A stretch of DNA of 63,326 bases, counting the filler, from an uncultured Methanosarcinales archaeon (GTDB lineage Archaea > Nanobdellota > Nanobdellia > Woesearchaeales > CALCXY01): the NCBI GenBank assembly GCA_964385185.1. It is 9 parts of 9 records of this genome, joined end to end, with 100 filler letters (N's around TTAATTAATTAA, not from the genome) between each part and the next. Parts side by side here need not be neighbours in the genome. Positions count along the whole stretch, not along the records: positions 8,435 to 16,664 come from CAYLOA010000039.1; 8 more parts are not named here. One strand, given 5' to 3'. Numbering within the stretch: the stretch's first letter is position 1; every line of letters starts with the position of its first letter. This document shows positions 7,795 to 31,103 of this stretch, in pieces. A program made the translations under genes and the position numbers. The notes below the pieces were generated by a model, which was not told the origin of the DNA, did not search any database, and was given only the letters and a program-made list of their open reading frames with translations.

Positions 7795-7841
7795 GGAGGT
7801 ACTCACAGAGTACCCACTCTCGCAGTCTTACGACTGCGAGT
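7795..7841 (-). repeat. Structured intergenic element D (partial, two hairpins)
   Basis: Minus strand ACT-CGCAGTC-GTAA-GACTGCG-AG-AGT-G-GGTACTC-TGT-GAGTACC-TCC; 26 nt (7816-7841) identical to 13070-13095. Confidence 0.75.
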
Positions 7842-7962
7842 ATAGTGAATCAGTCATTATCTTATAATAAATTAGTTTAGAACTAAAAAAAGGAAAAGAA
7901 AAAAATTATTATAGAAAATTTCACATAAATTTTCTATTCCTCAAACTTGTTCTAAGTTTGAG

Positions 7963-13000: not shown

Positions 13001-13068
13001 GGCATGCCCAGTGGAGCTTTGCTCCACAGGGTCTCAAGTTGTTGCACAACATTGAGACACAGCATGCC
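13001..13068 (-). repeat. Structured intergenic element E (three-way junction)
   Basis: GGCATGC/GCATGCC closes hairpins GTGGAGC-TTT-GCTCCAC and GTCTCAA-GTTGT-TGC-ACAAC-A-TTGAGAC; strand assigned only by topology. Confidence 0.65.
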
Positions 13069-13069
13069 A

Positions 13070-13095
13070 ACTCTCGCAGTCTTACGACTGCGAGT
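13070..13095 (-). repeat. Palindromic repeat identical to 7816-7841
   Basis: ACTCTCGCAGTCTTACGACTGCGAGT, exact 26-nt match on another contig. Confidence 0.85.
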
Positions 13096-13130
13096 GGTAG
13101 GCTTCGCCTTCTGTACAGGGGTATTTTTAT

Positions 13131-13213
13131 CACTGGGCTTTGTCCTTGTGAATACCACGATGAGTGGTATTTACAGAAGGACAGGCTCACTGTGTGAGCC
13201 ACCAAGCCCAGTG
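13131..13213 (+). repeat. Structured intergenic element A (three-way junction)
   Basis: P1 CACTGGGCTT/AAGCCCAGTG; P2 GTCCTT-GTGAATACCAC...GTGGTATTTAC-AG-AAGGAC; P3 GGCTCAC-TGT-GTGAGCC. Confidence 0.8.
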
Positions 13214-19884: not shown

Positions 19885-20044
19885 ATTTAATGGGGGGCAT
19901 AGGTAGTTTATAAAGTTATTGAAAATCCCTTGATGAGATTTTCAATCCCTCAAAGTCGCTTACATATTGCTGTATTTATGGAATGAATGGAAATTTGCGA
20001 CTTTGAGTTATTGGATTAATTTTATTATGATTTTTGTTACTTTT

Positions 20045-20135
20045 GCATTTCTGGACTGTGCCTTTATGTTTCAGGTTAATGGCCTGAAACATAGATAGGC
20101 AGGCTCACTGTGTGAGCCACAAGGTCCAGAGATGC
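20045..20135 (+). repeat. Structured intergenic element B (three-way junction)
   Basis: P1 GCATTTCTGGAC/GTCCAGAGATGC; P2 GCCT..TATGTTTCAGG/CCTGAAACATA..AGGC; P3 region (20100-20120) identical to 13182-13202. Confidence 0.8.
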
Positions 20136-26884: not shown

Positions 26885-28093
26885 TTAACTAAAAAATAAA
26901 GCATCTTTCAATAATCCTGTTAAATGTTCTACCATTTGTTCTGCAAGAGGTATAGTAATCTCTCTTGTCCTACCATATCTTCCTTTTGATATAACTCGGG
27001 CATTTATTATTCCCAACATATCCAATTCTCCTATGACATCAGAAACTCTTCGTTGAGTTAATGGTCGTAAACCAATTTTTGCACATAACTCAGAATACTC
27101 TGAATACACTTCCCCGGTAAAAATGATTTTCCGTTCAGAATCTGCTGTATGAAATATAGAATGTAATACAGCCTGTACTTGTTTGGGTTGTTTGGTAACA
27201 CTTTCAACAACTCTATCTTTTTCAATTTTAGCTTCTGCAACATCTAAATGAGATACACACACTTTGGGCTCGTTATTCCTTTCTGCCAACTCTCCTGCTA
27301 CTCGTAGTAAATCAATAGCACGACGTGCATCACCATGTTCCCGGGCTGCAAAGGCTGCACATTTTTCTACAACTCCTGGCTCAATTTTTCCTTTTCCAAA
27401 CCCTTGTGATGTTCTTTTCCTTAAAATATCTTGAATTTGCAAAGCATTGTAAGGGGCAAATAATAATTCCTCTTCAGATAAAGAACTTTTAACTCGTGGA
27501 TCAATATGGTCAGTAAAAACTAAATCATTACTAATTCCTACAACTGCAATCTGACTATTCTCCAACTCCGCATTGTGTCTTACTAAATTATAAAGTAATT
27601 CATCTCCTGCTTTTTGCACAAGATGATCGATCTCATCTAAAACTAAAATCATATTGGTTTTTGCTTCCTCAAGAGCTGCCAAAAAAATTTTATACACCTC
27701 ATCTGTAGGAAGTCCTGTAGCTGGAATCTCTTTACCTAATTCACGAGAAAGATGTGCAATCAATCGATACTCAGTATCAGTAATTTTTTTTAATTTACAA
27801 TTAACATAACACACATTCAAAGCAACTTCTTGATTTTTGGCAACCTGGACCAAATTTTGAGTCACATGTTTAATACTCACAGTCTTACCTGTACCTGTTT
27901 TACCATAAATAAAAAGATTTGAAGGACGATCTCCTCTCAATACAGGAGCTAGAACTTGTGCAATTTGATTAATTTCTTCATCTCTATGTTCCAACATATC
28001 AGGAATATAATTTGATTGTAATGCTTTCTTAGAAGCAAATAAAGACTCTTTTTTAACATAATCAGTAAAGAACTGATTCAACCCCTTTTCCAT
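26885..28093 (-). CDS. cdc6: Orc1/Cdc6 replication initiator
   Basis: YGKTGTGKT, LDEID, HGDARRAIDLLR, winged-helix SKGRYGRT. Confidence 0.96.
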   Translation of the reverse strand: MEKGLNQFFTDYVKKESLFASKKALQSNYIPDMLEHRDEEINQIAQVLAPVLRGDRPSNLFIYGKTGTGKTVSIKHVTQNLVQVAKNQEVALNVCYVNCKLKKITDTEYRLIAHLSRELGKEIPATGLPTDEVYKIFLAALEEAKTNMILVLDEIDHLVQKAGDELLYNLVRHNAELENSQIAVVGISNDLVFTDHIDPRVKSSLSEEELLFAPYNALQIQDILRKRTSQGFGKGKIEPGVVEKCAAFAAREHGDARRAIDLLRVAGELAERNNEPKVCVSHLDVAEAKIEKDRVVESVTKQPKQVQAVLHSIFHTADSERKIIFTGEVYSEYSELCAKIGLRPLTQRRVSDVIGELDMLGIINARVISKGRYGRTREITIPLAEQMVEHLTGLLKDALFFS

Positions 28094-28099
28094 ATCTTC

Positions 28100-28345
28100 T
28101 CCATAGGAAATACAGGTATTTAAACATTATCAATCTCCAATATATGACACCCCATCATTTCTCATGGAAACTATCCTTATATAATTATATTGATATAATC
28201 TTTATTATTATATTACTATATAGAAAATAATAAAAACAAGTAATAAATTTAAAAAATTAATTTCAAAAAATAAAATCACAAAAACACAATAAAAAAACAA
28301 ACCAACACAACAACCAAATCCCAATCTCCATACGAAACCAAGGGG
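28100..28345. other. Candidate replication origin (oriC): ORB elements flanking an AT-rich unwinding region
   Basis: TCCATAGGAAATACAGG (+,28100-28116), TCCATGAGAAATGATGGGGTGTC (-,28146-28168), TCCATACGAAACCAAGGGG (+,28327-28345) resemble the ORB consensus TCCA-N3-GAAA-N3-4-GGGG; very AT-rich 28175-28275; next to cdc6-polD. Confidence 0.8.
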
Positions 28346-28533
28346 ACACCCACACAAATCTCTTCTTAACCTTCATTTCCTTTACAAAATTTCCCAAAAC
28401 TTCAAACATACCAATACAACAAAAAATACCTATCCAAAACTAAAATAGATACCAGAATATCTATGTTTTTGTTACTATACAATAACAAAAAAAGGCAAAC
28501 ACTTATAAAGCATGTTCCCTTCCCAAATATAAG

Positions 28534-29325
28534 ATGATTGTACAACAAGATTTTTTGAACAAACTAAGAGATTTTGGATTAAATTCCTATGAATCAAAAC
28601 TTTGGGCTGCTCTATTAAGTAGAGGAATCTCAACAGCAGGAGAATTATCAGATATAGCTAATGTTCCAAGATCAAGAACATATGACGTTCTAGAATCATT
28701 AGAGAAGAAAGGATTTATTATCATGAAATTGGGAAAACCAATTAAATATATTGCAGTACCTCCATCTGAAGTATTAGAGAGAGTAAAAAAGAAAGTAGAA
28801 GAAGATGCTCAAACAAAAGCAGACATGTTAGATAACATAAAAAATGACGATATTCTAAAAGAATTAAATATATTACATAAAAACGGAATAGACCTTGTAG
28901 AACCAACTGAATTATCAGGTTTTATCAAAGGTGCAGATAACCTCTACAACCATTTTGAATTTATTATCAAGAATGCAGTTGAGTCAATCGATATTATGAC
29001 AACATCACCTGGATTAATTAAGAAAGCAGACAAATTACAATCATTATTAAAATCAGCTTCCGATAAAGGAGTAAAAATTCGAATAATTTCACCAACTAAA
29101 AAAACAGATCCAATCCTAAAATCCTTTGCAGATTCTGCAGAAGTTAAAACTACTGAAGATGTTACAGGAAGAATTTTTCTCGTCGACAAAAAACATGTTA
29201 CATTCATGTTATTAAACAACGAAGAAATTCATGATAGCTATGATACAGCTATCTGGGTAAACACAGAATTTTTTTCAACTACAATGACATCATTGTTTGA
29301 AAAAACTTGGAAATCAGCTAAATAA
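28534..29325 (+). CDS. TrmB-family transcriptional regulator/chromatin protein
   Basis: FGLNSYESK, VPRSRTYDVLESLEKKGF, GKPIKY winged helix. Confidence 0.9.
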   Translation: MIVQQDFLNKLRDFGLNSYESKLWAALLSRGISTAGELSDIANVPRSRTYDVLESLEKKGFIIMKLGKPIKYIAVPPSEVLERVKKKVEEDAQTKADMLDNIKNDDILKELNILHKNGIDLVEPTELSGFIKGADNLYNHFEFIIKNAVESIDIMTTSPGLIKKADKLQSLLKSASDKGVKIRIISPTKKTDPILKSFADSAEVKTTEDVTGRIFLVDKKHVTFMLLNNEEIHDSYDTAIWVNTEFFSTTMTSLFEKTWKSAK

Positions 29326-31016: not shown

Positions 31017-31103
31017 GTTGTTGGCTTGAGTCCTTGCATCTCGGCTAATGGTTCCGAGATGCAGAAGGGCTGGTGCTCTGTGAGCACCTCCAAAGCCAGC
31101 AGC
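31017..31103 (+). repeat. Structured intergenic element C (three-way junction)
   Basis: P1 GTTGTTGGCTT/AAGCCAGCAGC; P2 GTCCTT-GCATCTCGG...CCGAGATGC-AG-AAGGGC; P3 GGTGCTC-TGT-GAGCACC. Confidence 0.8.

Follow-up and report, generated by a model that had tools for sequence, protein, structure and literature searches.

A lineage-specific family of intergenic hairpin repeats in a small archaeon, probably dispersed and recombined as folded single-stranded DNA

The intergenic hairpin repeats described here form a lineage-specific family in a small marine archaeon. Folded single-stranded DNA is probably the form in which they spread and recombine, much as bacterial REP/BIME elements do, and their common hairpin, P3, is the presumed site at which a nuclease or transposase binds and cuts (we put the probability of this reading at about 0.6). 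The family dispersed after its host split from another genome of the same genus (G001), and its sites are retained while the modules occupying them turn over. Insertion takes place at the hairpin loop, the geometry of doublets is fixed, and orientation is locked to one strand of the chromosome. The window, i.e., the whole stretch of 63,326 nucleotides (filler included) from which the analysis started, consists of the joined contigs C38–C46 of the host genome (G000; 1.297 Mb, 85 contigs, 35% GC, completeness 100).

Classes of hairpin repeats and their copies in the window

Pattern and profile searches of the whole host genome gave a total of 66 copies at 50 intergenic sites (34 singles and 16 doublets); four of these copies were entered manually, their P3 being deviant or split. 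The copies fall into three classes (class I, n = 15; class II, n = 25; class III, n = 26) that have in common the hairpin P3, G-N4-C-TGT-G-N4-CC. Class I is a three-way junction of helices P1, P2, and P3. In class II, a 9–10 bp stem with a GTAA/GAAA or a longer TAATG loop is followed by AGT-N and then by P3, while class III is a single long stem with P3 at its tip and a bulge on the 3′ arm. Two more modules were distinguished. Class IV, a double hairpin of 50–51 bp, sits at the P3 loop of three copies in the host genome (13007–13057 in the window, and on C3 and C8) and in locus L019 of a sister species. Class V is a two-hairpin module without the TGT hairpin; it has six copies in the genome, two within the window and the others on C14, C27, C37, and C58. 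The class V interior is variable, up to ~170 bp, and TAA or TAG usually precedes the module.

When perfectly paired, GC-rich hairpins with stems of 7 bp or more were counted across the genome by triloop, TGT was found 20 times and ACA, the same loop read on the other strand, 15 times; each of the remaining 62 triloops occurred at most twice. This excess indicates that the hairpin family is not due to chance. A TTC loop is seen in two copies only (C11 9195 and C27 14323). Both are doublet members oriented against polarity, so that their C/A-rich strand reads C-GAA-G, a triloop that is extra stable in DNA. Some copies are adjoined by GCGAAGC mini-hairpins, whose stability is specific to DNA and which can be likened to the single-strand initiation signals of phages and plasmids.

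The original prediction was built on four copies lying on four different contigs (C38–C41), and the sequences and coordinates given for A (13131–13213, plus strand), B (20045–20135, plus strand), C (31017–31103, plus strand), and D (7795–7841, minus strand) match its description. The P1/P2/P3 junction was borne out for A, B, and C, all of class I, with folding z values of −6 to −9 as RNA and −5.6 to −9.8 as DNA. As the fold of the whole family it did not hold, since it belongs to only one of the three classes and the common unit is the TGT hairpin. Copy D, previously taken for a partial version of the same element, turned out to be a complete class II element with a GTAA tetraloop on P2, an AGT linker, and the P3 core TACT/AGTA. 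Three nearby elements had been missed, one of class II and two of class V. The class II copy (13001–13107, minus strand) lies directly upstream of A and is the with-polarity partner of that copy, which itself (P1, P2 with an AG bulge, and P3 with the TGT loop) is the against-polarity member of this back-to-back doublet. The partner has a GCGAAGC mini-hairpin at 13099–13107 and a P2 with a GTAA loop at 13073–13094, and its P3 arms are split by the class IV module, which here is 51 bp long (13007–13057, minus strand). Copy B, the sole apparent exception to the strand rule described below, has a class V module (19918–20007, minus strand) as its back-to-back partner. The second class V module of the window (7911–7962, minus strand) directly follows the stop codon of a 70-aa gene and is co-oriented with D. 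Copy C is a lone element between hjc and the histone promoter; its site is empty in G001. Of the neighboring genes named earlier, those for the protease, the alaX-type protein, Hjc, and the histone were recognized by Pfam, but the "pilin-like" protein was assigned to no family. A tRNA scan of the window found none.

Distribution, module turnover, and strand orientation

Separate covariance models for classes I and II, each run against 150 genomes (largely the same set), found matches only in the host genome. A scan for the P3 pattern revealed no second family among 401 genomes, the three single matches in 400 of them not being members; three hits from a GTDB scan all lacked a paired P3, and four viral scans yielded no family member. 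Comparison of orthologous loci for presence or absence had been proposed earlier. Six orthologous sites inspected in G001 (77% complete) contain no element, and alignments of these empty sites are too diverged to call a target duplication. A metagenome scan gave 35 loci: 19 from the same species, 4 from a sister species with 74–88% identity in most proteins, and 12 unrelated. All four sister loci map to sites that are occupied in the host genome, where only 50 of 656 gaps of at least 40 bp are occupied; these loci were found through the class II pattern and are silent on sites absent from the sister. Their content differs in every case. The sister has a single class II copy where the host has a III/III doublet, class II where the host has class I, II−/III+ where the host has III−/II+, and a III(+IV)/II doublet where the host has a single class II copy with another P3 core. 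Occupation of the same sites in two species would also fit selection for a function and to that extent counts against the mobile-DNA reading.

Class II copies at unrelated loci have homologous 5′ flanks (of 378 pairs, 19 agree at 12 or more of 19 positions; expected, 0.85), and two II–III doublets, whose P3 cores differ, are alike at 17/19 spacer positions as far as the class III arm. Within the tetraloop subclass of class II, 16 of 17 P2 stems are identical, as against seven different P3 cores; hence P3 changes much faster than the rest of the element. Around class IV inserts the P3 arms are unmatched in three of four cases, and in two such cases in the host genome each arm equals the core of another copy, as expected for crossovers at the P3 loop. 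On C39, contigs from four sequencing runs contained no joint that removes the A doublet. No clean excision was among the joints listed for 20 kb of C10 (contigs drop rare variants); two joints in this stretch skip ~2 kb including neighboring genes. The lack of an excision joint in these contigs counts against the mobile-DNA reading.

Further length differences were noted. In sister locus L045 (~335–430), a hairpin insert of ~95 bp, absent from the host genome, copies the 3′ end of the tRNA gene beside the doublet. Two ABC ATPase genes for branched-chain amino acids are ~1 kb apart in G001 (L139 808–1852), and in the host the corresponding gap holds only a III/III doublet (C5 24048–24180). Within the species, L013 is missing a 4.8-kb segment that lies between two 327-bp repeats on C21, and L034 has ~400 extra bases at the C8–C30 junction.

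We propose that P3, on folded single-stranded DNA, would be both recognized and cut by the moving enzyme, and that strand transfer at P3 would swap bodies and arms. The 4-bp core of P3 might then be re-paired by hairpin-templated correction after each exchange, and old copies would act as preferred landing places for new ones.

The orientation of copies is strikingly regular. In 33 of 34 singles, the TGT strand lies on the C/A-rich strand (p = 4e-9), whichever of three skews defines it (GC, AT, or third-codon keto), and single-copy orientation agrees with the local majority gene strand in only 12/34. Both singles of the sister species obey the rule as well. The one exception, B, forms a back-to-back pair with a module of class V; all six class V modules, this one included, read on the strand that obeys the rule (the C58 module being placed by contig linkage). 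Doublets are without exception (16/16) minus-then-plus and back to back, with one member along and one against polarity; their number rises to 17 of the 50 sites if B and its class V partner are included.

Of the two strands, the G/T-rich one is more exposed in single-stranded form; it carries the L2 gene and 55% of the coding sequence. Host contigs of at least 5 kb showed no skew switch, nor was there one across 15 end-overlap contig links or at cdc6 (26885–28534 in the window, with its upstream gap); four contigs have near-zero skew. In the complete genome of a relative, G017, third-codon keto skew has one sign in 33 of 40 windows and reaches at most +0.06 in the rest; it is strongest near cdc6 and fades opposite it (L119–L138, L185–L204). 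These observations suggest that replication in this order is largely unidirectional or strand-asynchronous. The strand lock could be set at replication by either of two routes: a copy whose folding strand falls on the more exposed G/T-rich strand would be deleted except within doublets, or single copies may be writable only into the C/A-rich strand. Class III remnants were found upstream of 3 of 33 singles, about the number expected by chance. The absence of an excess gives no support to a lock arising by loss of the wrongly oriented doublet arm, a process that we compared with REPIN decay as outlined in PMC3116915 and with the orientation of attC sites (PMC5371416).

A near-perfect strand lock is also what domesticated replication signals would be expected to show. 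Under this possible, though improbable, explanation the elements would be hairpins tied to one strand, spaced at roughly one site per 26 kb and serving priming or protein loading on a chromosome copied largely one way, and their bodies would be interchangeable because only P3 and a neighboring stem matter. It agrees with the retention of sites with changed content in the sister species, with the lack of a skew switch in the host and the one-signed skew of G017 with cdc6 inside the skewed zone, and with the GCGAAGC mini-hairpins beside some copies. Against it, the elements were not found in G001 or in a further 149–400 genomes of this order, copies persist with P3 split by an insert, and spacing is uneven: the 113-kb contig C1 has two copies, the 37-kb contig C10 has six, and several contigs of 20–34 kb have none.

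A combination of the two ideas was considered too, which we hold tentatively and think unlikely to be right in full. In such a self-targeting hairpin system, interchangeable modules would home to, and recombine at, the TGT-loop hairpin by means of a single-strand DNA enzyme belonging to none of the families Y1, Ssn, DUF559, and RT, with orientation set by replication in mainly one direction, and retained sites may be second-strand priming signals.

Covariation and position relative to promoters

Conservation of pairing is strong. Of 62 genomic matches to G-N4-CTGTG-N4-CC, 57 are perfectly paired, compared with 0/9 for the reversed control. In the 15 class I copies, 94.9% of cells pair and 22 of 33 pairs change on both sides; none of 500 shuffles, a control that leaves the relatedness of the copies in place, reached the observed value, and no slid structure came close. 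The P3 core has 15 perfectly paired forms, 12 of them linked through single compensated steps, and four forms are common to more than one class. The original prediction of a dispersed, covarying family is thus upheld, for a family far larger than noted.

The earlier claim that wobble pairs read G-U on the TGT strand was correct in direction; the bias is genuine but modest. In class I, the TGT strand has 19 G.T versus 6 A.C wobbles (p = 0.015), or 10 versus 2 (p = 0.039) after manual removal of the columns at helix ends and of two P1 rows that are misregistered or decayed. For interior wobbles of all classes the counts are 26 versus 11 (p = 0.02), and 13 versus 5 (p = 0.10) in unique contexts. 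An automatic strand-neutral count, in which extension overran helix ends, was flat at 33 versus 29 and counts against the mobile-DNA reading. The bias does not discriminate between RNA and DNA. Of the two strands, the TGT strand folds more stably in 46 of 62 copies as RNA and in 47 of 62 as DNA.

Covariation, the G.U bias, the preferred RNA fold of the TGT strand, and the GNRA-type loops of class II are all features expected of structured small or self-cleaving RNAs that fold on this strand. Several results make RNA genes an unlikely reading, and the original suggestion of a structured ncRNA is accordingly disfavored. A TATA-like motif precedes just 8 of 63 copies, compared with 449 of 786 gene starts (genes were called with our own gene caller, and TATA-like motifs were matched to a general consensus). 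Only ~10–30 bp separate the 5′ ends of doublet members, too little room for two promoters, and 23 of the 50 sites lie between divergent genes. In 35 of 43 cases, a copy is separated from its co-oriented gene by the TATA of that neighbor, in line with the earlier argument against a riboswitch. The copies are thus neither leaders nor genes with promoters of their own. Their orientation tracks DNA strand asymmetry, DNA folding has the same strand preference as RNA folding, and the class I junction has linkers of 0–4 nt and no conserved catalytic core. As predicted, no named family was recognized: Rfam returned no hit at gathering threshold in the window, and a search of 10 loci at E values up to 1, curated ribozymes included, gave nothing credible, its three hits being far below gathering. 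Compensated changes could also arise in DNA, through template-switch correction of quasi-palindromes. The hairpin-templated re-pairing of the core that we propose would explain the covariation without RNA.

All 66 copies are intergenic and none lies inside a credible gene. The sites comprise 23 divergent, 25 tandem, and 2 convergent gene pairs, with no significant enrichment of divergent gaps or any other arrangement class relative to the gaps available (p = 0.16). A downstream gene is co-oriented with 28 of 34 singles, compared with 384 of 629 (61%) in the background (p = 0.013). This preference is not predicted for a purely selfish element and so counts against the mobile-DNA reading. Together with the position of the neighbor's TATA, it would suit elements sited immediately before promoters that act as transcriptional insulators or terminators or, as cruciforms, bind a regulator. 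We regard such a role as decidedly unlikely: the flanking genes are unrelated housekeeping genes with no common function, arrangement classes are not enriched, there is no U-tract, the six singles that face an opposite-strand gene still follow the strand rule, and the orthologous promoters of G001 work without the elements.

Candidate enzymes and related repeat systems

The gene that would move a REP-like element was sought directly. Searches of the host genome for Y1_Tnp (PF01797), GIY-YIG (PF01541), RVT_1 (PF00078), DUF559 (PF04480), and TnpB (PF07282) were blank, so that the HUH/Y1 (RAYT/TnpA) gene flanked by copies that had been envisaged was not recovered. Motif patterns for HUH, RT, and GIY-YIG gave single unrelated matches or none in this genome, and no IS200/IS605-type element flanked by P3 was present in the collections scanned. 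Pfam analysis of 36 flanking proteins, picked from a much longer list of neighbors, detected no transposase; it did detect an integrase beside tRNA-Glu and, adjoining a class II copy, a PD-(D/E)XK/Cas4-like nuclease. The blank enzyme searches count against the mobile-DNA reading; the moving enzyme may have been lost, be missing from the assembly, be virus-borne, or be of an unrecognized fold.

Several genes close to copies are recorded here. The candidate nuclease gene, encoding a stand-alone PD-(D/E)XK Cas4-like protein (L030 6094–6924, minus strand, equivalent to C24 4065–4898), ends 81 bp from a class II loop. A hypothetical protein of 160 aa (L029 5273–5752, minus strand, equivalent to C34 3476–3958) is bracketed by copies; it has no Pfam or NCBIfam hit, and its Atlas clusters are made up of Woesearchaeota/Nanobdellota hypotheticals, which point to a Woesearchaeota-type DPANN host. 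An intact IS1182-family element with an apparent 4-bp duplication lies beside or within the class V hairpin of C58 (L157, ~145–1995); it has no blastn match to any class I–III copy. Two intact XerA-like genes, the integrase next to tRNA-Glu, which is divergent, and fragments of integrases close to tRNA genes occur at loci L158, L159, and L082.

Resident tyrosine recombinases invite comparison with integrons. Folding on one strand, extrahelical bases, a variable tip, the III/III doublet where G001 has ~1 kb more between two ABC-transporter genes, and the two intact Xer-type genes would fit attC-like sites of a cassette system, but this is very improbable, as archaeal XerA is the best-scoring identity of both Xer proteins, which fall below the integron-integrase cut-off with a split match, the neighbors are housekeeping genes in synteny with G001 rather than cassettes, and the doublets are inverted, not direct, repeats. 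In the account of sedentary chromosomal integrons in PMC5371416, attC sites resemble our elements in that their folding strand keeps a fixed orientation with respect to replication; they differ in belonging to cassettes and an integron integrase, both lacking here, and in being arrayed rather than dispersed.

The family has most in common with REP, BIME, and REPIN elements as these are described in PMC3333891, PMC3116915, PMC3733652, and PMC6006769. Both are intergenic imperfect palindromes with a bulge, lineage-restricted and folding on one strand, that come in several related types, form inverted doublets with a 10–30 bp spacer, and vary as mosaics. Of the two alternatives offered originally, the REP/REPIN-like mobile repeat that folds as a single strand is the one we favor. 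There are clear differences from the REP elements of those accounts. The host is an archaeon rather than a bacterium. No 5′ GTAG or CGTC tag is found at the P3 foot on the TGT strand (0/62), and class III has CTAC 5′ and GTAG 3′ of P3. No Y1 (TnpA-REP/RAYT) gene is present in the 85 contigs; Y1 enzymes in Archaea belong, according to the part of PMC6006769 that treats them, to the IS200 subclass only. The bodies are larger and branched, and singles outnumber doublets and are strand-locked, a prevalence that counts, like the missing tag, against the REP/BIME-like reading. Finally, REP elements are mostly downstream of genes, whereas these copies are upstream of promoters, with only 2/50 sites between convergent genes. 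Since the tag and the RAYT are both missing, we do not file the repeats as a REP family despite their REP/BIME-like working.

Among archaeal repeats, the closest precedent for nested insertion is provided by the PATEs and SMR-A repeats of Haloquadratum walsbyi. These, too, are palindromic repeats without a transposase, and a second small repeat can be inserted inside the palindrome, like class IV in P3 (PMC3119063). On the description given there, PATEs are derived from IS605-type ends, whereas G000 has no TnpA or TnpB; our elements, of 45–90 bp, in back-to-back doublets and strand-locked, are set apart from them by description rather than by sequence. The NTS/SRM hairpins of the Ssn GIY-YIG nucleases (PMC11893778) are likewise short repeated hairpins that could be recognized on single-stranded DNA. 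Unlike in that system, there is no GIY-YIG gene in the host and hence no small GIY-YIG gene flanked by hairpins; the word "archaea" does not appear in the main text of that paper. REP-like palindromes have been predicted in archaea, with DPANN unmentioned in the sections of PMC12306157 concerned, and rolling-circle-type skew is reported for some bacterial genomes in PMC7111523. Literature searches turned up no account of a repeat family of this kind in this archaeal group.

We conclude that the family likely represents mobile single-stranded DNA of REP/BIME type rather than RNA genes. It serves as a caution that textbook-looking covariation with a one-strand G.U bias need not mean RNA. REP/BIME-like mosaic repeats are hereby extended to a small DPANN-type archaeon without the known enzyme, and P3 offers a defined 17-bp substrate with which a new single-strand DNA nuclease or transposase may be sought. 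The near-perfect strand lock ties survival or insertion of the repeats to replication and makes them a marker for the mode in which the chromosome is copied.
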